Notes under the pieces: model-generated
The model's input: only the letters and a program-made list of their open reading frames with translations
Told to the model about the DNA's origin: nothing
Databases searched by the model: none
NCBI GenBank assembly: GCA_902764415.1
Contig: CACWVU010000004.1
Span: 15,758 to 79,757 of the forward strand
DNA: 64,000 nt
Direction: 5' to 3'
Origin: an uncultured bacterium
GTDB lineage: Bacteria; Verrucomicrobiota; Kiritimatiellia; RFP12; UBA1067
Translations under genes and position numbers: made by a program
Shown here: positions 9,140 to 48,099 of the stretch, piece by piece
Position numbering within the stretch: position 1 is the stretch's first letter
How the letters are laid out: each line of letters opens with the position of its first letter

Positions 9140-10369
9140 TTATGACCAAAGCACAGACATTGGCACTGCCAACATCCCATTACCAAACGAAAGTGTTTCA
9201 CTTCCCGAATATAGGACGATGCCGACAAATCGGCGTCCCTTGGTCAAATGCTCGCGAAACCACTCAAGATGCCGGAAGTCATTCTTTCCGACTCCAGCAC
9301 CGGCTTTGACCTCAACACCTGCAAGATTGCCGTCTGCATCCTCAACAATGAAGTCTATCTCACGTTTGTCAATGTCGCGGTACTGGTAAAGCGAGTATTC
9401 GCCAGATAAATCGATCTGTGCGGCAAGTTCCGTAAATACAAGCGTCTCGACAATCTTGCCAGACTTGTCAGCATCGAGTTCAATGTCCTTCGTGCGCCAA
9501 TTCAGCATAGCCGCCATGAGACCGGTATCGCACATGTACCATTTCGGACGTTTGCCGATACGCGCATAGTCCGACCCTGTCCAGGCCTCCACGCTTTCGC
9601 AAAGATAGTAGCGTTCCAGCACCCCAAGATACTCCCTGTAGGTGGAACGGGAAAGTCCACACGCAGACTGAAGCGCGTTGGAATCGATATACTTCGACGA
9701 CCATGCGGCAACTGCTTTAAGCAAGTCATAGAGCGCACGCTGCCGACGTATGCGCTCATCATCCTTGATGTCTTTGGAGAACAACGACTTGACATAGTCC
9801 TGAAACCATTCGCGTCTATCCTCAGGCGACAACCTAACCACTTCGGGATATCCTCCGCGAAAGGCAAGGTCTAATACTGTTCTCTTGTCGCAGTCAGGAT
9901 ATAGGCTGTCATAGTCGTTCGCAAAGAGCCTGTCAAGAAACGTTGGCTCCACGCCCTGAATCTCGCCCTGCGCAAACGTTCTCATGCGTATGTTCTTTAC
10001 GCGTCCGGCAAGGCTCTCGTCTGTTTCCGGTGCAGAATATATGTCGGACGAACCCGTTATGACATATTGCCCCGGACGACGATTCCTGTCGACTACCAAC
10101 TTGATCTCCGAAAGGAGCTCCGGAGCCTTTTGCACCTCATCTATGACCATCGGCCCGTCACCGTCATAGCGTACAAAACTCTGCGGGTCAAGAAGCGCGG
10201 CCTCTCGAAGCCGCTTGGAATCAAGACTGCGGATTTCCACCTTGCCATCAAAGAACATTTCAAGCAATGTCGATTTGCCGCATTGCCTTGCACCAGATAT
10301 AATGACTACACGACGCGTTTTAAGCGCCTTGCCAAGAACACGAAAATTCCACCTTGTGACATTGTCCAT
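9140..10369 (-). CDS. AAA-family ATPase with a DUF4143 C-terminal domain
   Basis: Walker A GARQCGKSTL. Paralogue of 29394-30725. Lies in the AT-richer DNA between the 61-bp direct repeats. Confidence 0.75.
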   Translation of the reverse strand: MDNVTRWNFRVLGKALKTRRVVIISGARQCGKSTLLEMFFDGKVEIRSLDSKRLREAALLDPQSFVRYDGDGPMVIDEVQKAPELLSEIKLVVDRNRRPGQYVITGSSDIYSAPETDESLAGRVKNIRMRTFAQGEIQGVEPTFLDRLFANDYDSLYPDCDKRTVLDLAFRGGYPEVVRLSPEDRREWFQDYVKSLFSKDIKDDERIRRQRALYDLLKAVAAWSSKYIDSNALQSACGLSRSTYREYLGVLERYYLCESVEAWTGSDYARIGKRPKWYMCDTGLMAAMLNWRTKDIELDADKSGKIVETLVFTELAAQIDLSGEYSLYQYRDIDKREIDFIVEDADGNLAGVEVKAGAGVGKNDFRHLEWFREHLTKGRRFVGIVLYSGSETLSFGNGMLAVPMSVLWS

Positions 10370-10430
10370 GTGATTTCCCTCTCCTTCTCAAGCAATTTGA
10401 AACATAGTATATCACAACCCCGATAATTTG

Positions 10431-10476
10431 TCTATTAGGAATCCGAGGATTTGTCTATTAGGAATCCGAGGATTTG
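10431..10476. repeat. perfect 23-bp tandem duplication (TCTATTAGGAATCCGAGGATTTG x2)
   Basis: Seen directly in the sequence, immediately upstream of direct-repeat copy 2. Confidence 0.85.
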
Positions 10477-10640: not shown

Positions 10641-11408
10641 CTATGGTTTTAAATGCTTTTGCTTCATTAGGTCACGCACCGAAGAATATCCTACTGATGA
10701 AACAACCAAGTGATCGATGAGTGGAATGCCAAGGTCTTTGGAGGTCGCCATTAGCTGACGCGTGGTCTCGATGTCGCCTTCGGATGGCGTGTGGTCACCG
10801 TTTGGATGGTTGTGGGCCACCACTATGCAGTGGGCATCCCATTTTATCGCTTCGCGAAAAACATCCCTCGGCATGACATAAGACGAGTTGGCCTGTCCAC
10901 GCGCAACCTTGATGGGCTCACAGATGGGAATTCGTTTGGCCGTCAAAGGCAGAACCCAGAAATTCTCAAGCACATCTCCTTCTTGCGCGATGAACTTGAA
11001 CACTTCGTATGCATCTTCGGCAGTTGCAACACGCATCTTCTTCAAATCGTCCGGTTTCACGCGAAGACGGCGATACCCGAGTTCAAATGCCGCTGCCAGT
11101 TCCAGCGCCTTGACCTTCCCAATGCCCTTGATAGGCGCTTCTGGGTTCTTTTTGTTGTAGTCAGATATCTTTGCGACAAGAGTACGCCAATCGGCGGTTA
11201 CAAGGTCTTGAATGCACCCAAACGCCCGGATGAGCCGTCTTGCGAGTTCCAAGACGTCACAGCCAGGCGCACCTGTCTTGAGCAGTATCGCAAGAACGGC
11301 CTCATCCTTTAGGTCGTGCGGACTCGCCGCACGCTCCATCTGCTCGCGCGGCAGGAGTTCGCTTGAAACTCCGTTCTTCTTGAAATTGCTTTCCCGCTTC
11401 TTGACCAT
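10641..11408 (-). CDS. radC: RadC-like JAB/MPN domain protein
   Basis: HNHPNGDHTPSEGD JAMM motif and an N-terminal helix-hairpin-helix region. Last gene of the island operon. Confidence 0.8.
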   Translation of the reverse strand: MVKKRESNFKKNGVSSELLPREQMERAASPHDLKDEAVLAILLKTGAPGCDVLELARRLIRAFGCIQDLVTADWRTLVAKISDYNKKNPEAPIKGIGKVKALELAAAFELGYRRLRVKPDDLKKMRVATAEDAYEVFKFIAQEGDVLENFWVLPLTAKRIPICEPIKVARGQANSSYVMPRDVFREAIKWDAHCIVVAHNHPNGDHTPSEGDIETTRQLMATSKDLGIPLIDHLVVSSVGYSSVRDLMKQKHLKP

Positions 11409-11409
11409 A

Positions 11410-12138
11410 TTATACCTCCTCCATCGGCATGGCTATAAAATCATTAAGTTCTTTCCGCAAAATCCTCCAGCGCGGCAATCGCCTGTCCATAAGCTCTACA
11501 AACGCTCTGGAGTGGTTCGACACCTCGAAATGCGTCAGCTCATGTACGACCACATACTCAATGCATCTTGCGGGCACTCTTCCAAGCGCGGCGTTGAAAA
11601 CGATCTTGCCGCGTTTCTTAAGACAACTCGCCCACCGAGTCTTCATCTTCCTAATTTCGGTTTCGGGAAGAGCAAGCTTCAACTTCCTGCACCATCCTTT
11701 CATCTTGCCCGCCAGAGACTCACCCAACATCGCCTTCTGCCATGATTCGACGATCCTCTCCTTATGCCCTCGTGAAGCGCCCTCCCGCACGTACAACGAC
11801 AACTTGTTGCCGCCCCACGTCACCTTTTCCGTCGCATAACGATCTTCCACGACAACCAATAGTTTATACCGGCGGCCAAGACAATAAATGCTCTCTCCGC
11901 TCACATACTCCCGACGCGTCTGGCGAGGCTGGGAAAGAACAGTCTTCCGCTGGTCGCGTATCCAGCCAATCTTGGATGCAAGAAAACTTCTCAAATCGCG
12001 GTCGGAAAGATCATCTGGCGCAGAGACATGCACCCTGGCATCCGGCGGATAGATGGCAAGATGCGTGTGCTTGATCTTCTTTCGCTCGACTTCAATCTGT
12101 ATTCCGGCAACTATCATAGCATCACATCCACGGTTCAT
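11410..12138 (-). CDS. YgjP-like metal-dependent hydrolase (DUF45 / M48 family)
   Basis: HELTHFEVSNHS zinc-binding motif. Sits in the classic position downstream of hsdR. Confidence 0.75.
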   Translation of the reverse strand: MNRGCDAMIVAGIQIEVERKKIKHTHLAIYPPDARVHVSAPDDLSDRDLRSFLASKIGWIRDQRKTVLSQPRQTRREYVSGESIYCLGRRYKLLVVVEDRYATEKVTWGGNKLSLYVREGASRGHKERIVESWQKAMLGESLAGKMKGWCRKLKLALPETEIRKMKTRWASCLKKRGKIVFNAALGRVPARCIEYVVVHELTHFEVSNHSRAFVELMDRRLPRWRILRKELNDFIAMPMEEV

Positions 12139-15100
12139 CGCTCATATAGGAATCTGCATCGAACTCACCTTGGTGTTCGACGATCTGATATACGGTAAGG
12201 GGATTGAAGTCCGTGCCCTGAAGCGCATCTTCTATCGCCATCTCGACCTTTCGCCGGCGTATGGCGTTTCTTCGAAAGCCGGGCTTGGCGCTTGCTCCGA
12301 CAGCCTCGAAGACCTTGAGCGCAAGGTCAGCATCGCCGCCCAGGTTGTCGCACAGGCTACGCTTGGCCTCGGTGTCCAGGCGCGGATCTTCAACTGCCGT
12401 GTCGCCTTTCAGTTCCTTGCCCATCTTTGCGATTTCCGCAAGTAGCTTTCTGTATTCAATCTTCTCCTTGCGGTAGTCTTCGAGAAGCCTGTTAATGCGC
12501 TCAGAGAACTTGCGGTACTCGGCAGGGTTGGTCTCTTTCTTTCTGAAGATGTAGCGTCTGACGTTTGCCACAAGCGTTTCCGCGACGCCGCGTTCGCCCC
12601 CGACCTCGGACTCCACGTCGGGATCGACCGACCCTCCATCGTCTTTGTCGATTTTTATCAGATCGAGAAACGAAAGATCCTCGAGGTCGGCGAGTTTCAA
12701 CGCATGCTTGGCCGTGACGAAATTGTCGAGAAGCGATCGCATCTCGGCATCGTAGAGCTTGAGGTCCACGAAATCGCCGGCTCGCTTCATGATCGCCTCG
12801 CGCAGCATGTCGTAGTTGCGCACCTTCTCCTTTAGCGCAGCCGCCTCGGCGGGGGAGTAGCCGGCCTCGTCAGTTTCCTGCGCGATGTCGCTCCAAGCCC
12901 TTACCGCGGCGATGCAGGCCTGGTAGAAGTCTTCCCGCAGCTGCGAATCCCCGGGTCTCTGCGCTTCACCGCCAGGTTCTGCGCCTGGGCGCGTGCCGTT
13001 CTGCGCTTCGTCGCGTGCGATGAAGTAATCGCAATACTCATCGATCCCCTTCGGCGGCAGTACCGGTTCCGAAAGAATATCGCACCGTTCAAGAGCTGCT
13101 TCAAGCGCCTTGCGACCTTCTTCAAGCCGTCCCTTGAGGAGCCCCTCTACATCTTCTTTCTCAAAGTTCTTGAACGCGCCGTTGGTGTAGTCTTTGACTG
13201 CGCCCCTTATGCTCTCAAAGAGATGTTTGTAGTCGATGATGTAGCCATAGCGCTTTTTCTCCCCGTTTAGCCGGTTGACGCGGCAGATGGCCTGGAAAAG
13301 GTTGTGGTCTTCCATCTTCTTGTCGATGTAGAGATAGGTTGCGGGCGGCGCGTCAAAGCCGGTCAGCAGCTTGTCAACCACAATCAGCAGCTTCATCTTC
13401 GCCGGATGCTCGACAAACTCCTTCTTCGCCCATTCTTCGAAATCTTCGGGCGATTTTTCTCCGCGCATAGCAAGGTTCATCCTGTGCTTGTACTCGGCTT
13501 CGGTAAGCTGCTCGCCGGTGAACGCCTCGGCAAGACTTGGCTCGTCGCCACCGTAGCTCGTCACTACGGCGCAATGATCCTTCAGCGGCGAGAGAGCGTC
13601 GCTGAACATCGCCCAAAACCGATATGCCTGATACACCGACTCGCAAACCAGCATCGCATTGCCCCATCCGTCGCGGAGCGCTGGCTTGAGCCCCATGTCC
13701 ATGCAGATGTCGGTGACAATACGCTGTACGCGCTCTTTCGCCGAAAAGAGATTCTGCATCCGCGCCCAGCGCTTCTTCAGCTCTTCCTTCTTGGCGGGAA
13801 GAAGGTTCTTGGTCTTATGTTCGAAAATCGAGTCGAAAGTCACGTCTTCGGCGAGGTTCTGCTCGATGTCGCGCGCCTCATAGCGCAAATCAAGCACGAC
13901 GCCGTCCTCTACCGCCTCATCGAATTTGTAGGTGTGGATGAACGGCCCGAAATTGGCATAGCTCGTAAGCACTCCCTTCTCGCTTTTGAGAAGAGGCGTT
14001 CCCGTAAAGCCGATCAGCATTACATCTGGCCCCATGATCTTCTTCATCGCCAAGTTCATCACCCCGCCTTGCGTGCGGTGGCACTCGTCAACGAAAACGA
14101 AGATATCGCCCTTCGCCTTGAAGCCCAGCGGCAATTTCTCGGCAAGCTCCTTCAAATAAACCGCAGCCGACCTTTCACCCCGCAATCTGCGCTCGCGAGC
14201 ATCAAGCTTCTCCTTGGACCCATTCGCGCCAAATTTGTGAATCAGTGTTGTAATAAGCCGTTCACGCGATTTGTTCAACGTTGCTATCAAGTCGGCGCCA
14301 CTTGTCGCGCGATATGGCTTCTCGCCGGCCTCCTTGAAGCCGTTTGTAATCTGCTTGTCGAGTTCGTCGCGGTCGGTGATTATCACCACCCGCGCATCGG
14401 GGCGATGTTCCTTGATCCACTGCGCAAGCCAAACCATCGTAAGCGACTTGCCGGAGCCCTGCGAATGCCAGATGATGCCCGACTCCTTGCGCATGATGCG
14501 AGGCTTCGCCGCCTCCAGCGCAAAGAACTGTGCAGGTCGCATAACCTTCTTCACACCGCCGTCAAAGACGATGCCGTCGTGTATAAAGGCCAGCAACCGC
14601 TCCTTGTCAAGCATCTGTGCAAACGAGCGGTCAACGAGCGGCTTTATCTCCGCTTTGCTCCACCTCGGCACGGCGCACGGATTGCCACAAGGCTCTTTCC
14701 ACTTCAGCCAGTGTTTCTCAGGGGTGAGCGTCGTCGCATACTTCAGACCCTCAGATTCGTTGCCCGCCATCAGCAGCTGCGCAGCGGCAAAAAACGCCGG
14801 TATCTCCCCCTCTTGCTGATTGCGGTAGTTCTGGCGAATTCCCTCGGCCACGCTCACATTCGCCTTCTTTAGCTCGATCACGCAAAGGGCAATGCCATTC
14901 ACCCAGATCACGACATCAGGCCGGCGATGGCCGTTTGCCGCGACCTGCCGCCTTACAGTCACCTCCTCGGCTATGGAGAAGTTGTTTTCGAGCGGGTGTT
15001 GCCAGTCGATGAAATAAACCTGTTTCATCGGCTTCCCGGGCTCGGTCGCAATCGACATCGGGTATCTGAGGGTCAAATACACTTCTTTGTTTACGTTGTA

Positions 15101-15376
15101 GAGGTCGGCCTGGCCCGGGCATGCCATGCGCTTCGCGAGCTCGGCTATTGCACGGTCGGCACATGCGGGCTCTAGCTTTTGCTTGCAGACAAGGAACTCC
15201 TTCAGCGCCTGGCGGTCAAGGCAAGAATTCTCTCTTTCCGAAAGATCGCCCAGATAATCATAGCCAAGCTTTGTTCGCAATAGTCCAATGATGCGATCTT
15301 GAACCGCTCGTTCGGAGGCAACCACAGCGCCCGCGCCGTGGAACGAAACCTCGCCTTCAACCTTATCGTTTTGCAT
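12122..15376 (-). CDS. hsdR: type I restriction enzyme R subunit
   Basis: HsdR_N-like N-terminus, SF2 helicase motifs (GSGKSLT, FVDECHRTQGG), 1084 aa. Confidence 0.9.
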   Translation of the reverse strand: MQNDKVEGEVSFHGAGAVVASERAVQDRIIGLLRTKLGYDYLGDLSERENSCLDRQALKEFLVCKQKLEPACADRAIAELAKRMACPGQADLYNVNKEVYLTLRYPMSIATEPGKPMKQVYFIDWQHPLENNFSIAEEVTVRRQVAANGHRRPDVVIWVNGIALCVIELKKANVSVAEGIRQNYRNQQEGEIPAFFAAAQLLMAGNESEGLKYATTLTPEKHWLKWKEPCGNPCAVPRWSKAEIKPLVDRSFAQMLDKERLLAFIHDGIVFDGGVKKVMRPAQFFALEAAKPRIMRKESGIIWHSQGSGKSLTMVWLAQWIKEHRPDARVVIITDRDELDKQITNGFKEAGEKPYRATSGADLIATLNKSRERLITTLIHKFGANGSKEKLDARERRLRGERSAAVYLKELAEKLPLGFKAKGDIFVFVDECHRTQGGVMNLAMKKIMGPDVMLIGFTGTPLLKSEKGVLTSYANFGPFIHTYKFDEAVEDGVVLDLRYEARDIEQNLAEDVTFDSIFEHKTKNLLPAKKEELKKRWARMQNLFSAKERVQRIVTDICMDMGLKPALRDGWGNAMLVCESVYQAYRFWAMFSDALSPLKDHCAVVTSYGGDEPSLAEAFTGEQLTEAEYKHRMNLAMRGEKSPEDFEEWAKKEFVEHPAKMKLLIVVDKLLTGFDAPPATYLYIDKKMEDHNLFQAICRVNRLNGEKKRYGYIIDYKHLFESIRGAVKDYTNGAFKNFEKEDVEGLLKGRLEEGRKALEAALERCDILSEPVLPPKGIDEYCDYFIARDEAQNGTRPGAEPGGEAQRPGDSQLREDFYQACIAAVRAWSDIAQETDEAGYSPAEAAALKEKVRNYDMLREAIMKRAGDFVDLKLYDAEMRSLLDNFVTAKHALKLADLEDLSFLDLIKIDKDDGGSVDPDVESEVGGERGVAETLVANVRRYIFRKKETNPAEYRKFSERINRLLEDYRKEKIEYRKLLAEIAKMGKELKGDTAVEDPRLDTEAKRSLCDNLGGDADLALKVFEAVGASAKPGFRRNAIRRRKVEMAIEDALQGTDFNPLTVYQIVEHQGEFDADSYMSDEPWM
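12955..13022. repeat. GC-rich 22-24-bp tandem repeat (GTTCTGCGCYTSGSCGCGTGC x3), in-frame inside hsdR
   Basis: Same repeat family as 16015-16112 and 16276-16322. Encodes ...GAEPGGEAQRPGDSQ... Confidence 0.7.
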
Positions 15377-15389
15377 CTCTTCTCCTCCC

Positions 15390-16700
15390 TTAACTAACTG
15401 CTTGCGCCACCGCCTCGTCGATGCCGCTCAACACTGCTCCTTTGTAATCGATTTCAACCGCGCCATCATCGGCAATCAGCTGGGCAATGCGGTTTAAAAC
15501 CTGCGCCTCGTGGCGCGTCATTGCTTTCTCGCCCGGCACATACGGCCAGCCAATCGGCGCGAGCATCAGCAAATTGCCCGCCGCACACGTTTCAAATAGC
15601 TTGCCGCCCGGCTTGTAGAGCGGCGAAAAGCCCTTGTTCTGCAATGTTATCACGCGGTGCCCCGCCTCGAAGGCGCGGCGGGCGATCTCGCGCTCGCCAT
15701 GGCTGATGCATGGGCTAAGCAACACCGCGCCCTGCGCCGCCGCGCGCATGGCGGCGGTCGCCTTTTCCTCAAATTCAGGTGTTGATTTTTCCACCATCGG
15801 CTTGCCGGCGGAATCGCGGCAAATTTGCCAACCACTCGGCAACCGCCGCCGCTTGTAGGCGAAGAAAGAGCGCGAGCATTGAATCTGGCAAATAATCGGC
15901 CGCGTCAAAAGAAAGTGGTTGCCAATCGCCATAAAATGCCCCTTCGCCGGGCCGCGCCAGGGGGGAATACCGGCTCGCTCGCGAGCCGACGCAGAACCAG
16001 CCTCGCCCCAACCGGGGTTCTGCGCTTGGGCGCGCGTGCTGTCCTGCGCTTCGCCGCGCGCACGGTTCTGCGCTTCGCCGCACGTGGGGTCCTGCGCTTC
16101 GCCGCGCGCGGCGAAGTCAACCTCAATATCGCGTGCCACCTTGAAAAGTTCTAGGCAAGCCCGCTTGATGCCCAAGCGCCGCGGGTTGGCACGAATGTAG
16201 GCAATCATCTTTTCAAGCTGCCCCGCGCGAAATAGTATCAAATCAACATACCCAGGCGCCCATAACCCTACCGCCATGTTCTGCGCTTGGGCGCGTGCGT
16301 GTCCTGCGCTTGGGCGCGTGTTCCAAAGTTCCCCCGCGCGGCTTGTACTTTTCGACTTGAAGCTGCCGATGATATTGCCAAGTTTTTTCTTCTGCTGCTC
16401 CTTCACGAAGATGATGCCATGAAAATGATCGGGCATCAGCTGGCTTTCAATCACTTCAACCCCTGGCCACTGCTGAGGAATCTCGCGCCAGCATTGCTCG
16501 ACAATCAACCCGATCTCGCTTGGCTCAACCCGCCACTCCTCGCCCTCGCCGACAAGCCGCCCCAAAGCCGGCCGCGACCGATCGGCCAGCGTGATCGTGA
16601 TCATGTAAATGCAGCGCGAGGAATAGTCCCAGTTGAAGCACCGCCGTCCCATGTGGTGCTTCACCTCCTGCCTCACTTCGCTCTTATGTTTAGCGGTCAT
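15390..16700 (-). CDS. RayT/IS200-like HUH Y1 transposase domain fused to an unknown C-terminal domain, interrupted by in-frame repeats
   Basis: HuH motif MPDHFHGIIF plus LWAPGYVDLILF...YIRANPRRLG (the RayT 'W..F.DH.I...Y..NP..GL' pattern). Unknown C-terminal domain of about 200 aa. Repeat-encoded RAQAQN/GEAQD stretches. Confidence 0.6.
   Translation of the reverse strand: MTAKHKSEVRQEVKHHMGRRCFNWDYSSRCIYMITITLADRSRPALGRLVGEGEEWRVEPSEIGLIVEQCWREIPQQWPGVEVIESQLMPDHFHGIIFVKEQQKKKLGNIIGSFKSKSTSRAGELWNTRPSAGHARAQAQNMAVGLWAPGYVDLILFRAGQLEKMIAYIRANPRRLGIKRACLELFKVARDIEVDFAARGEAQDPTCGEAQNRARGEAQDSTRAQAQNPGWGEAGSASARERAGIPPWRGPAKGHFMAIGNHFLLTRPIICQIQCSRSFFAYKRRRLPSGWQICRDSAGKPMVEKSTPEFEEKATAAMRAAAQGAVLLSPCISHGEREIARRAFEAGHRVITLQNKGFSPLYKPGGKLFETCAAGNLLMLAPIGWPYVPGEKAMTRHEAQVLNRIAQLIADDGAVEIDYKGAVLSGIDEAVAQAVS
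16015..16112. repeat. GC-rich 24-bp tandem repeat x4 inside the RayT-like gene
   Basis: GGTTCTGCGCTTGGGCGCGCGTGC-type units, in frame. Confidence 0.75.
16276..16322. repeat. GC-rich 24-bp tandem repeat x2 inside the RayT-like gene (between the HuH and Tyr motifs)
   Basis: ATGTTCTGCGCTTGGGCGCGTGCGTGTCCTGCGCTTGGGCGCGTG. Confidence 0.75.
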
Positions 16701-16717: not shown

Positions 16718-19700
16718 TTATGACTGAGTTGTGTTTACCTGAATCTTGCCATCAGCTTTTTCGCTAGTGGAAGACACAATACCTTTCCCTTTTAGAAACT
16801 CGATGAAAGCCCCGACACCTTCCCATTTTGAAATCTGGGGATGACACCCGAGTTCTCCAAGTCTATTATATGGCTCTGACATTCTCCTTAACCGATTGCG
16901 TATTTCATCGGTGTCGCCACCAAGATGCTGGATGATCTTACACTGCAATGTCGCCAAACTTAGCTTCCCAACAACCGCATCGAGTATCGCCTCATCAAAC
17001 TGTGTGTAGTTTCCAACATTGATGTAAGACGCGACACCAATAATTAAATCTTCATTGCCGAGTACAACATCTTTAAGCGTGTTGGCAACCATCGGTATGT
17101 TACGACGCGAAATCTTGTCAGGCGCAAAAAGTTTCTTGACATCATCCCTGTTTGCCATACCGTCAGAATACTCATTGCAAAACTCATTTATAAACATTGC
17201 CGCATAAACAATGTGAGAATCATTGCCTATATCACGAAGAGCCTGATACAGCTCATTTGAATACTTAATACGATTACCTTTCGCAAGATACTCAATTCGC
17301 TTGGGCGTCGCATTTGCTCCTGAATATCTTGATATAACGCCTTTACTCATACCTGACAAGAGGCCATTCATTGCGTCATCTGACAATTGCACTTCTTCTG
17401 CCAATCGCTTTGCCAAATTCTCATCTTCCTCCCACGCTATACCGCGCGAATTCTTCTGAGATAAAACCGAATAACAATCTATGTCATTTACATACTCCCA
17501 GAACAAGGTCTCGTCATCTGTGTTTCTATTCCACACCTCAGCTGCGTTATTCCATGTTGGCACAAGCCACTTGAGTCTTATACAAAGAGCAAGCGCCCTA
17601 TCCGACACGAGCTTCTTTGCGTCATCAATTCTACCTTGTTTTGATTGTTTCTCCACGAAACGAGTTATGTCATCCTCGCCCAAATCATCACGGTTGAAAA
17701 CAAAAGCAATATTCTCAATAGAATCTTCCTGCTGCGACTCCAATTGCAAATACACATTGTCAAGATACGTTTTAAACTCTCTGTCCACATAGTCAACAAG
17801 TTGCTTGATTCCACAACTATTAATCACCGAATAGTTCTTCTTCTCAAAATCGCTCACATCAATCCCTTTGGCGTTCAATATCTCCTTCAGCATATTTGCA
17901 TCAAGTAAATATGCGCATTCAGATATGACAACCTCAATAAATCCAGTCTCTTGCGCCAATTTAAAGTCAAGCACTTCGAACTTCAAGTCAAACTGCCTCA
18001 CAAAAGCTGTCATAGTCTCTACATCGTTAATCCCATTGTCTCGCAGCAACTGCGGCATGGCCGCTGTCTGCTCCACATACTCTTTTACAATGTTAGACGG
18101 AACAACAGCTTTCTCCTGTCGCATTGTCCACGCGACATACAGCCCCAATTGCTTTTCAATAAACTCGCGTGGCCAGCCGTCTCCCGAAACTGAAGTCTCT
18201 ATCAACTCTGCCATGTAGTTCGGAGTTGCCGACATGATGCAGTCAAACAACTTTCTTGCATCGTCTCCCTTTGCCACTTCCGTAAGATATCCATCTACAA
18301 ACTCATAACTTCTCAAATCCTTTTTGGAAATTAGTTGCCAAAATTCCTTTGCCTTCTCACTCTCGGGGCTTGTCAAAAGTTCGCGGCAAATGTCATAGTT
18401 CGGCATAGATGGAGTCGAGAAATAATGCAGCTCAAGACTTTCAATTAGCGCCCTAGGATTTTTGAGTTTGGTTTTCCAATCAGCATCATCGCCTCGCGTA
18501 ACACCAACTTCAAAAAGGTAATCCTGAATAGAATTAACTCCGTCAACCTCATGGAAGATCGAAATGTTGTAATAATACTTTTCGTTGAGATAGCCATTCT
18601 TCAACAAGAGAATCACAAGTTCTGCATCTTGCCGATCTTCGCTGCTTTCCTGAATGATTACCTTAATCTCATCATCTTTCAAGACGCCTTCTACCATTAA
18701 TTCCTGAATCGTTTTATGCTTGATAGTTAGGCGACGTTCCTTTAGGACCTGAATTTCCTGTTTGATCTTTTCAATACGCCCATTTTGATGCGACTCAATT
18801 CGTTTGACGTGTTCATCGTATGTACAGTTAGGGTCTGTCTTCTTTTCGATATCCGCCCATTTTATCGGGCGATTTCCATACGAACCTCCTGAAAATCCAT
18901 TTCTGCGCAACACCTCAAACCAATTATCATAGTAGAGTATCGCCGAGGCAAACCTTTGTTCTCCCTGAATATGCACATAGGCGTTGTGAGGATCAAACTC
19001 TCGCATCAATGTAGCATAATACAACAATTGCAATTGTTGAATGTCCGTCAACTTTTCCCCATTGATGCAATCAATCTCATGTTTCAAATTGCTAATCTTA
19101 TCATCAATATCTTTTGCCAACCTTTCCTGGGCTTCTTTTTTCTTCTCAAGGAACTTCCACATCATACCTCTTTCATCATGCATGAGGGCAAAATCCTTGG
19201 GAAAGAAGTTTTTGAACACAACAAGTCCCAAGAGTTCTTGCTCAGAGGTATAATCGATTACTTGCTCTCTGTAAGTGTAATATTCATTGCAAATGTTCTT
19301 GAGAAGCCGCATATCCGAGATGTACGGCGAAACCACCTTTACAAATCTTACCAATGTCTCATCTGGCTTAGTGTCGCTCCAGTCATTGAGAAACGCCAAC
19401 AACTCCGTGCGTGAATTAGATGCATTTATTCGCGGAATGATCGGAATAACAAAATCAAAGAATTTCACTTTGCTCTTTTCATCTTCAAACAGTTCTTCCC
19501 GAAGCGCATATATAAATCTTATAGGTTTTTTCTTGACACTTATCTGATGGGAATTGTTCAGAAGTAGATTTAGCTCCCGCAACTTCGTGAAGATACATAA
19601 ATCATTAAATCTATCGATGTCCTCAAAAACAACTATAGAACATTTTGAGGCAGAAAAGAAATTAATGATTGTCCTTATGTTACGGTTAAGCATAGAACAT

Positions 19701-20380
19701 GACGGGATATCCGGCATCTCAATTTCCAAGCCAGCAAGCCCAGCGCCACTTACATCAACACGTTTAATGCCTGTATCCTTTAGCCAGTAAACCACTTTAC
19801 GCATAGCCATTAGAGAAACAGCAACAACCTCAAACAATGAAAACCAAAATATAACACATGCGTAATTTGCGACCCAATCATGTATCGCCGGTGTTACATA
19901 CTTCACAAAAACATCTGGTTGCATAATGCCAATGATACCCCCACCTATCAAAAGCACTACGGTAATTATTTTCCAACTCCACCATGCCGCATCCTTATGC
20001 AGGTGAACTATTTGCTGCAAAATACTTAATTCTAATTTGTGCTCAAACTCAGTTTTTTCCTCTTCTGTCTTGCCAATTCTATGTTGCTCAAGGAATAAGG
20101 CCAAAGAAACCCACAGAACATTCTTCTTTCCCTTGAAATAAGTCCTCAAGAATGAACTTTTCCCAGCCCCATACAATCCAGTTACCGCAATATTTTTGAT
20201 AGCATCGTTCTTTGACGACAGCGCAAAATCCATCGCCTCAGAGTACGTCTTGATATCTTCCGCGTTCTCTGTCGGTGTTAGCGATTGGAACGGCGATTCT
20301 ATCGAATGCCAAATATTTGTCGGCAGCATCAATTCCAAGACTTTCATAAGACATTTCTTCATGGCATATCCTCCCGTCAA
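16718..20380 (-). CDS. KAP-family P-loop NTPase (1220 aa) with TM segments inserted in the NTPase domain and a large uncharacterised C-terminal region
   Basis: Walker A GLYGAGKSSFL, inserted hydrophobic helices (WWSWKIITVVLLIGGGIIGIM...), Walker B VVFEDIDRF. 4-nt overlap with the upstream gene. Confidence 0.8.
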   Translation of the reverse strand: MTGGYAMKKCLMKVLELMLPTNIWHSIESPFQSLTPTENAEDIKTYSEAMDFALSSKNDAIKNIAVTGLYGAGKSSFLRTYFKGKKNVLWVSLALFLEQHRIGKTEEEKTEFEHKLELSILQQIVHLHKDAAWWSWKIITVVLLIGGGIIGIMQPDVFVKYVTPAIHDWVANYACVIFWFSLFEVVAVSLMAMRKVVYWLKDTGIKRVDVSGAGLAGLEIEMPDIPSCSMLNRNIRTIINFFSASKCSIVVFEDIDRFNDLCIFTKLRELNLLLNNSHQISVKKKPIRFIYALREELFEDEKSKVKFFDFVIPIIPRINASNSRTELLAFLNDWSDTKPDETLVRFVKVVSPYISDMRLLKNICNEYYTYREQVIDYTSEQELLGLVVFKNFFPKDFALMHDERGMMWKFLEKKKEAQERLAKDIDDKISNLKHEIDCINGEKLTDIQQLQLLYYATLMREFDPHNAYVHIQGEQRFASAILYYDNWFEVLRRNGFSGGSYGNRPIKWADIEKKTDPNCTYDEHVKRIESHQNGRIEKIKQEIQVLKERRLTIKHKTIQELMVEGVLKDDEIKVIIQESSEDRQDAELVILLLKNGYLNEKYYYNISIFHEVDGVNSIQDYLFEVGVTRGDDADWKTKLKNPRALIESLELHYFSTPSMPNYDICRELLTSPESEKAKEFWQLISKKDLRSYEFVDGYLTEVAKGDDARKLFDCIMSATPNYMAELIETSVSGDGWPREFIEKQLGLYVAWTMRQEKAVVPSNIVKEYVEQTAAMPQLLRDNGINDVETMTAFVRQFDLKFEVLDFKLAQETGFIEVVISECAYLLDANMLKEILNAKGIDVSDFEKKNYSVINSCGIKQLVDYVDREFKTYLDNVYLQLESQQEDSIENIAFVFNRDDLGEDDITRFVEKQSKQGRIDDAKKLVSDRALALCIRLKWLVPTWNNAAEVWNRNTDDETLFWEYVNDIDCYSVLSQKNSRGIAWEEDENLAKRLAEEVQLSDDAMNGLLSGMSKGVISRYSGANATPKRIEYLAKGNRIKYSNELYQALRDIGNDSHIVYAAMFINEFCNEYSDGMANRDDVKKLFAPDKISRRNIPMVANTLKDVVLGNEDLIIGVASYINVGNYTQFDEAILDAVVGKLSLATLQCKIIQHLGGDTDEIRNRLRRMSEPYNRLGELGCHPQISKWEGVGAFIEFLKGKGIVSSTSEKADGKIQVNTTQS

Positions 20381-25087: not shown

Positions 25088-27421
25088 TTACGGTTTAGCG
25101 ACCTTCGCCACTATCCCCATCTCTACGAGGTGCGCCATTACCTTTCCGCGCAGGGCGGCGACATCGGCCTCGAGCGATGCGAGCGGCCTGTCGTAGCGTT
25201 CAGCGAGTGCCTTTACCTCTGCGGCGATTTGCGAGAGCGTGCGGTCAAGCTCTGCGTCGAAACGGCGGTGTAGTTCCTCTGCCCACTTGTGATGAACGAC
25301 GAGAGTCTTTACATCATCTCCTGTAAGTTCCTCGTAGATGCTCTCGATCTCCCATGCAAAGCGCCTGTCGTCCTCGCGCAGATCTTTCTTGAATAACGCT
25401 ATGCTTTTCTTTAGCTTTTCGACCTCTTCGGGCATTTCATCATCTTCGCCAAGCCCTTCGGTCAATTCGGCGAATTGCGATTCAAGGCCTTCAAGCTCTT
25501 CGACGCGCTCCAAATAGCTCTCGTATGTTTTTGCGCACCGCCCTTTTGCCACGACTTCAGGCGGCAAAAGGTCGCACTGAAGGTCGCGCCAGCCATACGA
25601 TTTCTTCTTGGGTTTTACGAGCCTGGCCTGCCAGCCATCGCGGCAGATAAGATAGCAATCATCTTGCATAGTCTCCGCCCAGTAGTTCATCAGATGTTCG
25701 TATAGGGCGTAGGGGGATGCCAGAGATTGGCTCGCACGCGAGCCAGCGCAGGACAACGCGGGCTGGCGCAAAAGTTCTTCGCCCCATTCTGCGATAATTT
25801 TCTTTGGCTCGGCACCGCGCTTGAGGCCAAGCGCCTTGCGCGTAAAATCGCCAAGCCACCGCGCACAGGCGTTCTCAAACGCATCTATCTGCCCGGCCAT
25901 TTCATCACCCTCTCGCAATTCGCCAACAATCTCTTCCTTGGGCAACGCGAGCTTTACAAAGCCCTTGCGAAGCGGCTTAAAGAGACACGCTGGGTATTTC
26001 GCCGCCTCGTCGACCGGGATACCACCCTTTAGATGGGATGTAAGATTCTGCCGAACTTCCTTGTCGGATGGTGCGACATAGCGCGGTATGTTGAGGTTGT
26101 AGTCGTTTGCCTCAATGTCGGCATACTTCACGAACTGCGCGTAGTGTGGCACGTTCTCGCCGGCGTTCCAGACGTCGACAATGCGCCTTACGTCGCTTTC
26201 GCGCAAGCGGTTCTTCGCGCCATCTTTGGCAAAACCATCTTTGGCATCGATCATAAAGACACCCTTCGATGCCGTCGCGCCTGCTTTATCGAGCACTATG
26301 ATGCAGGCGGGGATGCCCGTGCCGAAGAAAAGGTTTGGTGGCAACCCGATGATGCCCTTTATCCAATGGTGGCGCACGATGTACTTGCGTATCTCCGCCT
26401 CGGCGTTGCCACGGAACAAAACGCCATGCGGCAGAATGACGGCGGCGCGTCCGCTCGGTTTCATCGACTTCAGGATGTGCAGCAAGAAGGCATAGTCGCC
26501 GCACTTCGGCGGTGGCATGGGCGCGACCCCCTCGCCATGCCCCCAGCGCCCGAAGCGATCCTCTTCGCTCGCGCCCTTGAGCCAGCTCTTGACGGAGAAC
26601 GGAGGATTGGCAACGACATAGTCGAACGTGCAAAGCTCGCGGTCGTTGCGCTTGTGCAGGGGATCGGTCAACGTGTCGCCGTGCCTGAGGTCTGGATCGT
26701 CCACGCCATGTACGACCATCGACATGCGCGCCATGCCGATTGTGGCCACGTCCTTTTCCTGGCCTTGTATGGCGACACCCCCTTTCGCCTCCGCCGCCGC
26801 GCGAAGAAGAAGCGACCCGGACCCGCAAGTCGGATCGTAGATCGAAATCATCCTGCGCTTGTCGTCGCCGATGCCGATCACCTTCGCCATTACGCGGCTA
26901 ACTTCGGCGGGGGTGTAGAACTGCCCCTTCGACTTGCCCGACTGCGTGGCGAAGTTTTTCATCAGGTACTCGTATGCGTCGCCGATCAGGTCGTCGTCGG
27001 CAGCGCGGTTGTTAGAGAAGTCGAGGTCTTCGTCCTGGAACACGCCGATGAGTCCGCTCACCGTGTCGACGAGGTCCTTGCCCTTGCCAAGCTTCGTCTC
27101 GTCCGCGAAGTCGGCGTTGTTGACAACGCCTTCAAGGTCGTTCGCGGAGGCGATCTTGGCGAGGATCACATTCACCTTCTCGCCAATGTCCTTGCTGCCC
27201 TTGAGCTGGACAAGGTCGTCAAAGCTGCAGCCCTTCGGTAGTTCTATCAAGAGCGACTTGTCGCCCGATTTCTTCTTGTCGCTCAGGTACTTGATGAACA
27301 GCACCACCAGCACATAGTCCTTGTACTGGCTCGCGTCCATTCCGCCGCGCAGTTCGTCGCATGCTTCCCAGAGCTTTGAATATAGCTGTGATTTCTTAAT
27401 TGCCATCGCTGATACCTCCAC
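25088..27421 (-). CDS. hsdM: type I RM N6-adenine DNA methyltransferase subunit with a long coiled-coil C-terminal extension
   Basis: HsdM_N-like N-terminus, SAM motif, VVANPPFSVKSW (NPPF). 777 aa. Confidence 0.9.
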   Translation of the reverse strand: MEVSAMAIKKSQLYSKLWEACDELRGGMDASQYKDYVLVVLFIKYLSDKKKSGDKSLLIELPKGCSFDDLVQLKGSKDIGEKVNVILAKIASANDLEGVVNNADFADETKLGKGKDLVDTVSGLIGVFQDEDLDFSNNRAADDDLIGDAYEYLMKNFATQSGKSKGQFYTPAEVSRVMAKVIGIGDDKRRMISIYDPTCGSGSLLLRAAAEAKGGVAIQGQEKDVATIGMARMSMVVHGVDDPDLRHGDTLTDPLHKRNDRELCTFDYVVANPPFSVKSWLKGASEEDRFGRWGHGEGVAPMPPPKCGDYAFLLHILKSMKPSGRAAVILPHGVLFRGNAEAEIRKYIVRHHWIKGIIGLPPNLFFGTGIPACIIVLDKAGATASKGVFMIDAKDGFAKDGAKNRLRESDVRRIVDVWNAGENVPHYAQFVKYADIEANDYNLNIPRYVAPSDKEVRQNLTSHLKGGIPVDEAAKYPACLFKPLRKGFVKLALPKEEIVGELREGDEMAGQIDAFENACARWLGDFTRKALGLKRGAEPKKIIAEWGEELLRQPALSCAGSRASQSLASPYALYEHLMNYWAETMQDDCYLICRDGWQARLVKPKKKSYGWRDLQCDLLPPEVVAKGRCAKTYESYLERVEELEGLESQFAELTEGLGEDDEMPEEVEKLKKSIALFKKDLREDDRRFAWEIESIYEELTGDDVKTLVVHHKWAEELHRRFDAELDRTLSQIAAEVKALAERYDRPLASLEADVAALRGKVMAHLVEMGIVAKVAKP

Positions 27422-29393: not shown

Positions 29394-30725
29394 TTAGTTC
29401 TTCATGCCGATGGCGTAGAATGGCAGTGTGGTGAGTTCGCAGCGACCATTGTCGCCTGCGCGCACGGTCTGCCTGCTGAAACGTCCGGCGTCAAACCTGA
29501 TGGCCTGGTCAAGGTGTTTGTCGGCCGTCATCTGCCACAGCGACCTGAGCGAGCCCGCCGCACCGGCCTTGACCTCTATCGGCATGACGACGGAACCGTC
29601 CTCGACAACATAGTCGACCTCGGCATTGCTCTTCGCGCATTCGCGCAGCCAATAGTTCAGGCGCGGCTCTTCAAAATCGCCGCGCCGGAAAAACAGGTGC
29701 TGACCGACAAACTGCTCGGCTATGCTGCCCTCGTTGACCAGCGCAATGTCGTCCATGTCCGACAAACGCGTCCAGGTCAAGCCGTTCGCATAGTTCATCA
29801 GCCCGACATCGATGAACAGCAGCTTCCTCACCGACGGCCGCTCCTCGGCGCCGAGCGGAATACCGTTCGAGTCCGAATGCACCACCGGGCAGGCGATTCT
29901 GGCCTTTATGAACAGGTCGATTACCGACGCCACCTTGGCAGCCTTGCTTTCACGCGAATAGTTGACGAACTTGACCTTCTCTCCGACGCGGGCCGGTATG
30001 GCGCGGAACACGCTCTGCATAAGAGCAAGGTCGGCTCCGTAGGCATATTTTGCGAAATCATCTATGTATGTGTTCACTATCCTGCGGTGCACCGCCGAGA
30101 CCTCCGCGAAGTTCTGCGTGTCAAGCCACGTCTGAGTAGCCTCGGGCATGCCCCCGACAAGCATATAGCGGCGCACAAGATCCATCAGCTTCTCGTGGAC
30201 TGCATCCGAGACGCCGGCGACTACATTCTCCATTGAGATGGATTTGAACAGATATTCATCTGCGGCGGCGACAAACTCGCCGAAGGTAATCGGCCCCAGG
30301 AACATATACTCCACCCTTCCAACGGGCATAGAGAAGTTGTGCCGGGCAAGGGCGAACTCAAGAAGAGATCCTGCCGCAACGATTGGCAGGTTGGGCATTT
30401 CCTCGTAGAAATACCTCAAGGCGTCAATCGCCTCCGGAATCGCCTGAATCTCGTCAAGGAACAAGATGCCCCCGGGTGCCGTCACATCCGATGAAATCCT
30501 GTCGGATATTTCCTGGCAAATCCGCTTGGGATCAAGCGATCGAAATGCCGGTATCAAATCAAGATTCCGGTAGAGATTAATTTCACGAAGCGCGAGACCC
30601 TCGGCCAAGGCGAAATCACGTACAAGCGTTGACTTTCCAACTTGCCGAGCTCCTCGAATAACAAGAGGATGGCGATTGTGGCCTGAAAACCACTTCTTCA
30701 TGCTATTTATCGCATCTCTTTTCAT
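29394..30725 (-). CDS. AAA-family ATPase with a DUF4143 domain (paralogue of 9140-10369)
   Basis: Walker A GARQVGKSTL. At the right edge of the AT-richer island. Confidence 0.75.
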   Translation of the reverse strand: MKRDAINSMKKWFSGHNRHPLVIRGARQVGKSTLVRDFALAEGLALREINLYRNLDLIPAFRSLDPKRICQEISDRISSDVTAPGGILFLDEIQAIPEAIDALRYFYEEMPNLPIVAAGSLLEFALARHNFSMPVGRVEYMFLGPITFGEFVAAADEYLFKSISMENVVAGVSDAVHEKLMDLVRRYMLVGGMPEATQTWLDTQNFAEVSAVHRRIVNTYIDDFAKYAYGADLALMQSVFRAIPARVGEKVKFVNYSRESKAAKVASVIDLFIKARIACPVVHSDSNGIPLGAEERPSVRKLLFIDVGLMNYANGLTWTRLSDMDDIALVNEGSIAEQFVGQHLFFRRGDFEEPRLNYWLRECAKSNAEVDYVVEDGSVVMPIEVKAGAAGSLRSLWQMTADKHLDQAIRFDAGRFSRQTVRAGDNGRCELTTLPFYAIGMKN

Positions 30726-46207: not shown

Positions 46208-46355
46208 TTCAGCAGCCAGCAGCCAGTATTCAGCAACCAGTAATAAGGATGAATCGTCCTCATCCCACTGGAAGCTGATCACTGGCTGCTGGTTGCTGGC
46301 TGCTGGCTGCTACATTAGTGTTCAACAGCCAACAACCAGTATTCAGCAACCAGTG
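46208..46355. repeat. CAGCAG-type inverted-repeat element, copy 3
   Basis: CAGCAGCCAGCAGCCAG...core TAATAAGGATGAATCGTCCTCAT...CACTGGCTGCTGGTTGCTGGCTGCTGGCTGCT...CAACAGCCAACAACCAG. Confidence 0.7.
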
Positions 46356-48046: not shown

Positions 48047-48076
48047 TAGGATTCTAGGCTTCTAGATTTCTAGGAC
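48046..48076. promoter_or_regulatory. CTAG-rich motif CTAGGATTCTAGGCTTCTAGATTTCTAGGAC (second copy)
   Basis: Related to 39314-39337. Confidence 0.4.
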
Positions 48077-48099
48077 AGGTAGGACGGGAGGGTTGAAAG

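Follow-up and report, generated by a model that had tools for sequence, protein, structure and literature searches.

The window, by which we mean the whole 64-kb stretch of DNA that was analysed, carries a type I restriction-modification operon whose hsdR gene lies directly next to a RayT-like gene, and which also includes hsdM (Table 1). The original prediction described nine short units in three tandem arrays, three in hsdR (12955-13022) and four and two in the RayT-like gene (16015-16112 and 16276-16322), and these were confirmed by the sequence itself, by Tandem Repeats Finder (12976-13018, period 22; 16016-16109, period 24; 16277-16320, period 23) and by a pattern search. As originally written all nine are on the plus strand, antisense to both genes. 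The pattern search of the 64 kb returned 23 matches in all against 10.8 expected, and 0 of 100 shuffles gave as many as 23; the matches with two or fewer mismatches were just those nine units, and at this threshold no further copy was detected in the window. The arrays are also richer in GC, at 0.63-0.74 compared with 0.56-0.60 in the host genes and 0.51 in the island. However, while the repeat is real, the unit first noted is only the right arm plus tail (hereafter half unit) of a larger palindromic element, and the initial census had missed two elements in the opposite orientation, together with hsdM as a third host gene.

Read on the usual coding strand, an element consists of a ~20-nt palindrome with a 9-bp stem, CTTSGSCGC-RC-GCGSCSAAG, around a 2-nt centre (effectively 8 bp and a 4-nt loop), followed by the tail CGCAGRAC (complement GTYCTGCG), which is invariant whereas the stems vary. 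Tandem copies of the right arm plus tail often extend the element with a modal period of 24 nt, so that an array is one hairpin plus repeated half units; array units span 20-33 nt, mostly 24, and 39 of 53 spacings are multiples of 3. Examination of CGCAGRAC tails in related loci showed that 85/176 (48%) have an upstream palindrome with at least 8/9 pairs, against a background of 5.5e-4 per position. The 46 distinct full units contain 17 different right arms, with a matching left arm for each, and both sides change at five of the nine pairs, giving a covariation score of 0.605 compared with 0.159 in shuffles and 0.07-0.13 when slid. In these units 98.8% of cells are paired, a percentage that is partly circular as the units of this alignment (A2) were picked for complementarity, the count of palindromes upstream of tails being the non-circular test. 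Upkeep of stem complementarity could reflect intra-palindrome template switching instead of selection for protein binding. Hairpin potential was undetectable in the arrays as first delimited, but became visible once the left arm was included and related loci were compared; the window hairpins fold at -7.4 to -9.6 kcal/mol, with modest single-unit folding z-scores of -1.5 to -2.3, and two of the five are degenerate.

Using a covariance model built from other loci only, with the window sequences left out (model R1), we detected five hairpin elements with E<1e-5 in the window, all in the type I restriction-modification operon: one in hsdR, three in the RayT-like gene and one in hsdM. The next best match scored 12 bits. 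No Rfam family match was found for the elements.

Table 1. Genes, arrays and hairpin elements of the window
Feature	Position	Strand	Composition	Remarks
hsdR, type I restriction subunit	12122..15376	-	1084 aa; one array	TIGR00348 E 5e-142; immediately downstream of RayT-like gene
RayT-like gene	15390..16700	-	436 aa	main home of elements
hsdM, type I methylase subunit	25088..27421	-	hosts antisense element	from gene table of L001
hsdR array	12955..13028	-	hairpin element 12998-13028, then half units 12976-12993 and 12958-12973	40.3 bits, E 8.5e-13
hsdR element	12998-13028	-	CTTCATCGC-AC-GCGACGAAG + CGCAGAAC	array encodes ...ARDEAQNGTRPGAEPGGEAQRP...; units in frames 0 and 1
RayT-like domain-junction array	16017..16119	-	perfect hairpin element 16089-16119 and three 24-nt half units	44.6 bits, E 1.9e-14
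RayT-like junction element	16089-16119	-	CTTCGCCGC-GC-GCGGCGAAG + CGCAGGAC	array encodes DFAARGEAQDPTCGEAQNRARGEAQDSTRAQAQN; hairpin -9.6 kcal/mol
Opposite-orientation element, RayT-like gene	15967..15997	+	CCGGCTCGC-TC-GCGAGCCGA + CGCAGAAC	32.6 bits, E 7e-10; folding z -2.26; encodes conserved ...SASARERAGIPPW... segment
RayT-like site-1 array	16278..16331	-	degenerate hairpin element 16301-16331 and half unit 16278-16295	22.4 bits, E 5e-6; between HUH motif and catalytic Tyr; encodes ELWNTRPSAGHARAQAQN
Antisense element inside hsdM	25724..25774	+	TTGGCTCGC-AC-GCGAGCCAG + CGCAGGAC, plus one degenerate half unit	39.7 bits, E 1.5e-12; z -2.0; encodes ...LLRQPALSCAGSRASQ...

The opposite-orientation element of the RayT-like gene and the junction element converge tail-to-tail, forming a REPIN-like doublet that sits exactly at the domain junction of this gene, and such convergent pairs were present in 16 of 22 loci. 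As single-stranded DNA the junction (15960-16125) folds significantly (z -3.07), whereas folding it as RNA gave no significant score (z -1.62). Throughout the RayT-like family, including stand-alone genes in Victivallales, the doublet and at least one antisense element keep the same position.

Analysis of 24 related loci (~300 kb) revealed 100 full elements, with 68 in the RayT-like gene, 23-24 in hsdR, five in hsdM and two in YgjP, while none was present in the 142 kb of other DNA across these loci, nor in their YobI, hsdS, RadC or RhuM genes, and element density drops with distance from the RayT-like gene. An unbiased scan of metagenome DNA for hairpin plus tail placed 14 of 14 loci in the RayT-like gene or the adjacent hsdR, and a tandem-unit scan of 185,579 species genomes, which like all our whole-genome scans used exact patterns only, returned just two Kiritimatiellia genomes with one contig each, in both cases the operon. 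A related hsdR operon that has no RayT-like gene (L053) contains no element, and plasmid and phage collections gave no matches. Likewise, a search of the window peptide against 1.84 billion protein representatives produced only two weak, unrelated matches and no other protein families. The possibility that the motif is simply a common coding repeat found throughout unrelated genes was thus not borne out by the peptide search or by the species-genome and metagenome scans, and the suggested link with the neighbouring RayT-like gene is upheld by the finding of elements only in RayT-like genes and their operon neighbours. This shows that the element family is almost confined to the RayT-like gene and the flanking hsdR, hsdM and YgjP genes in type I restriction-modification operons of Kiritimatiellae.

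We also assessed how the elements are translated. The original prediction held that reading frames are preserved because each array is a multiple of 3 nt, and both ORFs are indeed open, but single units are not multiples of 3 (spacings of 20, 22, 23 and 24 nt) and the window units are translated in differing frames. Sense units were observed in frames 0, 1 and 2 in 50, 28 and 6 cases (RGEAQN, TRPSAEP and HAAKRRT, respectively), and 24 of 98 oriented elements are antisense. As the right arm plus tail contains no T, and its complement no A, there is no stop codon in any frame. The encoded peptides are rich in Ala/Gly/Glu/Gln/Arg/Pro, and the expected Ala/Gln/Glu/Arg-rich linkers fall in predicted disordered regions, the repeat-coded segments of the predicted structure having pLDDT<50. 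Tolerance within coding sequence is further illustrated by closely related alleles that are without the inserts.

Comparison of such alleles directly displays presence/absence polymorphism. Orthologues of hsdR at 93-95% identity have no window insert, which measures 57 nt relative to the 95%-identical alleles L050/L051, and the site-1 array is absent from a RayT-like gene whose protein is 92% identical (L067). There are at least five independent insertion sites in hsdR orthologues and at least five in the RayT-like family; close relatives are polymorphic at the hsdR sites and also at those in hsdM and YgjP, and even near-identical alleles show free variation in both copy number and position. 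Block copying was also observed, with an 85-nt multi-unit block common to the RayT-like gene and hsdR of one locus. In all three filled/empty comparisons, similarity to the 5' portion of the insert was already present in the native target, a pattern explained no less well by microhomology-driven template switching or ectopic gene conversion than by HUH transposition. A portion of the palindrome (YFVARD) survives in some 'empty' hsdR alleles, which may be deletion remnants and not naive sites, and alleles that differ in inserts also differ in their flanks (L007 compared with L008, 6% divergent). Although copy number differs, every allele retrieved is full length and in frame, and no frameshifted or rearranged allele was present among the retrieved proteins, which is a weak negative as a protein database would under-represent frameshifted alleles.

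The RayT-like protein has an N-terminal Y1 HUH domain fused to a C-terminal domain of uncertain fold that is possibly DprA-like, and H92 and H94 of the HUH motif and Y168 are invariant across the family. It scores 46.5 bits against NCBIfam NF047646 (cutoff 80) and 21.4 against Pfam Y1_Tnp (cutoff 23). Using Foldseek, the predicted fold, for which mean pLDDT is only 56.6, matched ISDra2/IS608 TnpA and RayT 4er8 (E 1.5e-6 to 2.8e-5), and the matches include hairpin-DNA complexes. The identical protein is encoded on 19 contigs that were assembled independently of one another, and the gene is syntenic, with a fixed operon position directly upstream of hsdR. In a clade of 36%-identical RayT-like proteins the hairpin and tail are different, CCTGTGGC-TTGC-GCCACAGG + CGGGGAAC, and again lie inside the clade's own gene, showing that hairpin type is lineage-specific.

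A RAYT is expected to bind and cleave its single-stranded REP, at CT or CA beside the hairpin. The REP/REPIN-RAYT systems of Proteobacteria (REPtrons) resemble the elements described here in having a short GC-rich palindrome beside a conserved oligonucleotide, with the stem-loop also present here, in their frequent inverted doublets (REPIN/BIME-like), in being tied to a single-copy Y1 HUH gene of the IS200/IS605 superfamily, although our elements are inside and not flanking the ORF, and in hairpin types that are specific to enzyme lineages. They differ in that our enzyme is below the NCBIfam RAYT cutoff, has an extra C-terminal domain and is embedded in a type I restriction-modification operon, and in that half-unit arrays are common here. 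To our knowledge, the low and local copy number is unlike every described REP/RAYT system. A REP is expected to be an imperfect palindrome of 20-40 nt that can fold as a single-stranded DNA stem-loop, as these elements can. The criteria for REPs also include a conserved GTAG (or CGTC) tetranucleotide that caps one side of the palindrome (PMC3733652; PMC8266576), yet neither is present here and the flank is instead CGCAGRAC, 3' of the hairpin. Some known REPs are also inside ORFs (PMC3733652; PMC8266576), and a cleavage and strand-transfer (CST) assay of REP/RAYT has been described (PMC8266576); our elements are neither extragenic nor high-copy, being confined to the RayT-like ORF and a few kb around it. 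The proposal of REP-like identity is therefore supported by the hairpin with its conserved tail and the strong stem covariation, but the elements are not REPs in the strict sense, because the GTAG tag, high copy number and extragenic location of the textbook definition are all lacking.

Palindromic elements of Rickettsia (RPEs) are ~100-150 bp in length. They are scattered across the genome in many unrelated genes and have no dedicated transposase adjoining, whereas our 24-31-nt units are extended in tandem and occur in only four gene families of a single operon, which encodes a candidate mobilising enzyme. As here, where hsdR (93-95%) and RayT-like (92%) alleles without the insert exist, RPEs are palindromic inserts that lie in frame in functional protein genes, are translated, are polymorphic between orthologues and occupy surface loops (PMC3733652). 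The IS200/IS605 elements IS608 and ISDra2 likewise have a Y1 HUH enzyme that recognises sub-terminal single-stranded DNA hairpins, with cleavage sites set by short sequences at the hairpin foot, and their TnpA structures match the predicted fold of the RayT-like N-terminal domain; however, in those elements the transposase gene lies between the hairpins and forms with them a mobile unit present in several copies, while here ORFs contain the hairpins and the gene keeps its syntenic place instead of being dispersed. Phase-variable type I restriction-modification tracts share tandem repeats inside hsd genes with strain-variable copy number. Those known have 1-5-nt repeats in which length changes switch the frame on or off, whereas here the units are 20-33 nt, palindromic and shared with a transposase-like gene, and the alleles are in frame.

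Our preferred reading, to which we assign a probability of roughly 60%, is that these REP-like elements spread locally, probably through the Y1 (HUH) enzyme encoded beside them, and that genes tolerate them as disordered linkers free of stop codons. We infer that the RayT-like protein is the catalyst and acts in cis. Relatives of the Y1 enzyme bind hairpins in single-stranded DNA and cut beside them. The enzyme would recognise hairpin plus tail and copy or re-join units locally (cis preference), with hairpin-induced slippage and block copying then expanding or contracting the arrays, and copies would persist in coding sequence as they are stop-free in every frame and their peptides lie in disordered loops. 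A bolder version, which we put forward only tentatively, is an 'inside-out REPtron', in which a Y1 HUH enzyme with a possibly DprA-like single-stranded DNA domain, in type I restriction-modification operons of Kiritimatiellae/Victivallales, would keep and propagate its cognate hairpins inside its own and its neighbours' coding sequence, strictly in cis; the elements, translated in any frame, would keep reshaping the surface loops of HsdR, HsdM and the enzyme, or serve as programmed nicking or rearrangement sites of a defence operon.

These readings have to be weighed against one in which the present RayT-like protein has no role and the locus is a fossil REPtron, where REPs once flanking an ancestral RAYT gene were absorbed into the ORFs of a tightly packed operon, for instance as the Y1 gene fused to a downstream domain, and have since been altered only by hairpin-induced replication slippage, quasi-palindrome template switching and ectopic gene conversion among the copies. 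The conserved convergent doublet exactly at the domain junction agrees with this, as do the microhomology in 3/3 filled/empty comparisons and the flank differences between alleles such as L007 and L008, while one hairpin with half units at a dominant 24-nt period is what slippage would give and multi-unit blocks shared between genes of one locus are what gene conversion would give. Slippage makes no new sites, though, yet polymorphism among close relatives is seen at five or more hsdR sites and at those in hsdM and YgjP; moreover, the invariant HUH and Tyr residues argue that a catalytic function has been kept, hairpin type differs from one protein clade to the next, and element density declines away from the RayT-like gene. 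On balance we consider a fossil origin rather improbable, though it is the strongest of the rivals.

We regard as quite unlikely that the hairpin plus tail is a selected cis-acting site with only incidental coding, either a DNA site at which the Y1/DprA-like protein would carry out programmed nicking of the restriction system, its rearrangement or its phase variation, or an mRNA structure modulating stability or translation. An invariant tail beside variable stems, a position-conserved antisense element and doublet that extend to the stand-alone Victivallales genes, the significant single-stranded DNA fold of the junction and the standing of type I restriction systems as well-known phase-variation targets would all suit such a site, but a fixed regulatory site would hardly have a copy number and position so free to vary between near-identical alleles, the retrieved proteins included no frameshifted or rearranged allele, and neither the junction RNA fold nor the Rfam comparison was positive. 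An ordinary low-complexity (GEAQN-type) linker, favoured by selection on the protein and spread by domain shuffling, could account for the Ala/Gln/Glu/Arg-rich stretches in predicted disordered regions and for 39/53 periods in multiples of 3. It is effectively refuted by the translation of one DNA unit in three frames and on both strands, and the compensatory changes in palindromic DNA and the lack of related matches among 1.84 billion protein representatives also oppose it; an assembly artefact, which we judge as exceedingly improbable as the linker, conflicts with the recovery of the identical protein from 19 contigs of independent assembly.

The field has yet to settle how REP elements spread and which roles domesticated RAYT transposases play, and with the hundreds of dispersed extragenic copies of known REP systems it is difficult to trace any single event. 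Here, a few kb hold the putative enzyme together with all its substrates, public metagenomes supply near-identical alleles that differ by insertions, deletions and block copies, and a hairpin type specific to one lineage suggests co-evolution; the specificity of the enzyme for its substrate, its action in cis and its choice of target are therefore directly testable. The locus also raises the question of why a restriction-modification/defence operon should have, as a conserved member, a putative hairpin-cutting enzyme of single-stranded DNA. Finally, it displays a route from selfish or semi-selfish DNA to protein, in which palindromes without stop codons yield disordered linkers in each of the three frames, one of them possibly the linker that fuses the two domains of the enzyme itself.

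The original prediction placed three tandem arrays of a GC-rich unit in two genes, three copies in hsdR and four and two in the RayT-like gene. Tandem Repeats Finder located them at 12976-13018 (period 22), 16016-16109 (period 24) and 16277-16320 (period 23), and a degenerate 16-mer allowing up to two mismatches gave the same 3+4+2 units, every copy on the + strand, with no comparable copy in the rest of the 64 kb. In total the degenerate 16-mer matched 23 times in the window vs 10.8 expected, a number reached in 0 of 100 shuffles. As had been claimed, the arrays are richer in GC (63-74%) than their host genes (56-60%), and both the hsdR and RayT-like ORFs are still open. Each array was also said to be a multiple of three nucleotides; the spacings of single units are 20, 22, 23 and 24 nt. 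Window units are translated in different frames, into GEAQN-type and TRPGAE/TRPSAG-type peptides, which together with the unequal spacings points to an entity at the DNA rather than the protein level.

Comparing the DNA of related metagenome loci revealed the unit to be half of a larger element, with the first unit of each array preceded by its arm in reverse-complemented form. On the sense strand the element reads RAC-[CTTSGSCGC]-RC-[GCGSCSAAG]-CGCAGRAC, a palindrome and tail, after which come tandem half units, each consisting of a right arm and tail. Folding of the arrays as first delimited was not significant (both DNA strands, z -0.8 to +1.1), and the suggested hairpin potential emerged once the left arm was included. 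Stems vary among copies in the related loci yet remain complementary, with right and left arms pairing as GGCGAAG/CTTCGCC, GCCCAAG/CTTGGGC, GCAAAAG/CTTTTGC, GCCAAGG/CCTTGGC, GGGCGAG/CTCGCCC, GGGCTGG/CCAGCCC and GAGCTGG/CCAGCTC. An alignment of 46 distinct units, with 17 right arms among them, had 98.8% of cells paired, changes on both sides in 5 of 9 pairs and a covariation score of 0.605 vs 0.159 when shuffled and 0.07-0.13 in slid registers, although these values are partly circular as the units had been selected for complementarity. A test free of this circularity took in every CGCAGRAC tail of the loci: 85 of 176 (48%) were preceded by a palindrome with 8 or more of its 9 positions paired, against a background of 5.5e-4 at all other positions. 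The array period is mostly 24 nt (27 of 53 spacings), and 39 of the 53 are multiples of three. An Rfam search of the island gave no relevant family. Derivation of the motif from the type I recognition sequence was dropped by inference only, from HsdS product lengths, which differ among operons while the motif is constant.

We then searched the whole window, with filters off, using a covariance model of the hairpin element (R1) trained on non-window units only, and this returned five matches with E<1e-5 (see table), the next best scoring 12 bits. Both predicted host genes were recovered, while a third, hsdM, and two elements had been overlooked. The antisense element in the RayT-like gene and the four-unit array lie tail-to-tail and convergent, forming a REPIN-like doublet, and as single-stranded DNA this 166-nt junction folds better than 200 of 200 shuffles (z -3.07), with no significant fold as RNA (z -1.62). 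Taken singly, three of the five window hairpins adopt the predicted fold (z -1.5 to -2.3) and two are degenerate. A weak R1 match was also seen at the window's right edge, where the DNA is lower in GC (63443-63473 (-); 12.3 bits, E 0.036; CTTGCGCCGCCGTTGCGCGCAGAAC, with tail CGCAGAAC as in the elements), and could be a chance match or degenerate relic.

Hairpin elements matched by R1 and genes of the restriction-modification operon (window coordinates; operon genes in order)
Feature	Position	Strand	Score	Remarks
Hairpin element	16089-16119	-	44.6 bits	RayT-like gene, domain junction
Hairpin element	12998-13028	-	40.3 bits	hsdR
Hairpin element	25724-25754	+	39.7 bits	hsdM, antisense
Hairpin element	15967-15997	+	32.6 bits	RayT-like gene, antisense
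Hairpin element	16301-16331	-	22.4 bits	RayT-like gene, site 1 (between HUH motif and catalytic Tyr)
N6-methylase + hsdM	hsdM 25088-27421	-		operon order 1
RhuM, hsdS, DUF2806, hypothetical gene		-		operon order 2
YobI/Tmn-like NTPase	16718-20380	-		operon order 3; 1220 aa, YobI-like P-loop NTPase
RayT-like gene	15390-16700	-		operon order 4; 436 aa
hsdR	12122-15376	-		operon order 5
YgjP + RadC		-		operon order 6

The minus strand of the low-GC island (~9-31.5 kb of the window; GC 0.51 vs 0.67 in the flanks) carries a type I restriction-modification operon. Within this operon the YobI-like NTPase gene, a match to the Tmn defence model of PADLOC (E 1.6e-66), is an insertion with hsdS/DUF2806 on one side and the RayT-like gene on the other, and in related operons its position is occupied by other cargo (TIR, DUF1016 and hypothetical genes). 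AAA_14/DUF4143 ATPase genes at 9140-10369 (-) and 29394-30725 (-) flank the island, one on each side, and may delimit a mobile defence island. A perfect 23-nt tandem repeat, ATTTGTCTATTAGGAATCCGAGG x2.2 (10426-10476), lies in the spacer that separates RadC from the AAA_14 gene, and the high-GC host DNA contains heptanucleotide tandem arrays (434-557, 46266-46311, 47925-48166 and 60174-60248; for example GGTTCGT x14 and CGTGGTT x10.7, and also CTGGCTG/ACCAGCA-type arrays) with no relation to the hairpin family. Two related loci compared over 11400-16000 (L007 and L008) have an identical RayT-like protein, with hsdR/YgjP alleles ~6% divergent and different in insert content, which suggests that recombination has had breakpoints close to or at the boundary between the RayT-like gene and hsdR.

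The hairpin-plus-tail elements form a DNA family confined to the Y1-enzyme gene and its operon. Across 24 non-identical related loci (~300 kb) we counted 100 full elements, with 68 in RayT-like genes (27.6 kb), 23 in hsdR plus one at the hsdR start codon (52 kb), five in hsdM and two in YgjP; YobI, hsdS, RadC and RhuM had none, and there were none in the 142 kb of other DNA. Orientation was sense for 74 and antisense for 24. Sense units occupied frames 0, 1 and 2 in 50, 28 and 6 cases, encoding RGEAQN, TRPSAEP and HAAKRRT, respectively, and translation of the same DNA unit in all three frames excludes a purely protein-level repeat. An unbiased scan of 241 million metagenome records for the hairpin-plus-tail pattern matched 14 loci, every one a RayT-like gene or the adjoining hsdR, including one operon with an hsdR only 37% identical. 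Among 185,579 species genomes the tandem-unit pattern marked the operon in two Kiritimatiellia genomes, on one contig each, and the other 37 of 39 matches were chance singles in unrelated taxa with no additional units. An 18-mer scan of viral contigs gave 29 single matches, compatible with chance, and a profile-free search of the window's repeat peptide against 1.84 billion protein representatives found only two unrelated low-complexity proteins. The genome, metagenome and protein scans therefore argue against a common coding repeat of this organism. Control locus L053, a related operon (hsdM-hsdS-hsdR-YgjP) that lacks a RayT-like gene, contained no elements, and stand-alone RayT-like genes of Victivallales with no restriction operon (L054, L066) still held elements inside the gene.

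The RayT-like protein has >1,300 relatives of 384-527 aa in gut and rumen metagenomes, belonging to Kiritimatiellae or Victivallales where the source gives a name, and no homologues were found in plasmid and phage collections. Family members total more than 2,500. In its N-terminal 190 residues the HUH (H92, H94) and Tyr (Y168) are invariant across the family alignment, and the sequence profile of this region matches ISDra2 TnpA (E 0.004). An AlphaFold model, of low overall confidence (pLDDT 56.6), matched ISDra2, IS608 and IS200 TnpA and REP-hairpin-bound E. coli RayT in Foldseek (E 1.5e-6 to 2.8e-5), with repeat-coded segments at pLDDT <50, as expected of linkers. Scores under the curated thresholds (NF047646, 46.5 vs 80 bits; Pfam Y1_Tnp, 21.4 vs 23) make 'RayT-like' the right level of claim, and PADLOC has no model for this protein, matching only the neighbouring YobI-like gene. 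The conserved C-terminal domain (15393-15953 (-), 187 aa) had no Pfam matches, and its predicted fold gave weak matches (E 0.03-0.1) to ShosA of Shosta defence and DprA, a single-strand DNA binding protein; we regard a DprA/ShosA-like domain as a tentative lead and not a result, although a restriction operon encoding a Y1 nuclease with a fused DprA-like domain would, if true, be interesting in itself. A second clade of the family (L052), 36% identical and likewise directly upstream of hsdR, has no R1 matches at its locus, and its gene (L052 8757-8862 and 9329-9435) holds its own hairpin, CCTGTGGC-TTGC-GCCACAGG + CGGGGAAC, plus an inverted copy. Its relatives carry other lineage-specific repeats at equivalent linkers, encoding ACALGGGRTG, LAPQAGNGG, AVGTAGAGQ and GKLDGGAGNDD.

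The elements are polymorphic, have been copied between genes and are translated in all frames. Comparison of hsdR alleles, as originally proposed, identified some 93-95% identical without the window's 57-nt insert, in which YF(V/L)A(R/H/N)(D/T) runs directly into GDSQ, and the site-1 array is absent from a RayT-like allele 92% identical. Repeat-coded peptides occur at no fewer than five positions of the RayT-like alignment, in variable number or not at all, and likewise at five or more positions of hsdR orthologues. The RayT-like gene and hsdR of one locus have in common, at ~90% identity, an 85-nt block made up of a hairpin, a half unit and a second hairpin, and a third site has part of it. 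Some 'empty' hsdR sites keep most of the palindrome and may be deletion remnants.

Given the behaviour of the IS200/IS605/RAYT superfamily (PMC8266576), the exclusive association, the invariant catalytic residues and the lineage-specific hairpin, we propose that the Y1 enzyme would recognise the element hairpins in single-stranded DNA and copy the elements locally, with arrays then expanded by slippage. No stop codon arises because the right arm and tail lack T and their complement lacks A, and the elements would be tolerated since they are stop-free and encode hydrophilic, disordered peptides. The chief competing explanation, and a possible one, is a fossil REPtron (REP/REPIN and RAYT system), in which change occurs only through slippage, template switching and gene conversion. 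This is favoured by the microhomology at three filled/empty junctions, where the native DNA is already similar to the 5' portion of the insert (TACTTCGTCGC, AAATTTGGCGC and CGCGCGGG); a search at these junctions for a clean duplication of the target site or a fixed target motif found neither. A selected role, either cis-regulatory or in rearrangement, is possible but unsupported, and an assembly artefact is excluded as the source of the repeats.

Associations of REP/REPIN with RAYT are on record (PMC8266576, PMC3116915), as are intragenic REPs and Rickettsia palindromic elements (PMC3733652). The elements share with these known systems the palindrome, doublets, Y1 partner and in-frame tolerance. 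They differ in that they have no GTAG/CGTC tag, are neither dispersed nor high-copy, lie within the ORF of their own enzyme and are part of a restriction-modification operon, with the enzyme fused. A literature search on RayT in restriction operons and on Kiritimatiellae repeats found nothing relevant, and no description of this element system was found in the literature, plasmid/phage collections or Rfam. The chief interest of the elements and the RayT-like gene is as a compact, testable enzyme-substrate system.
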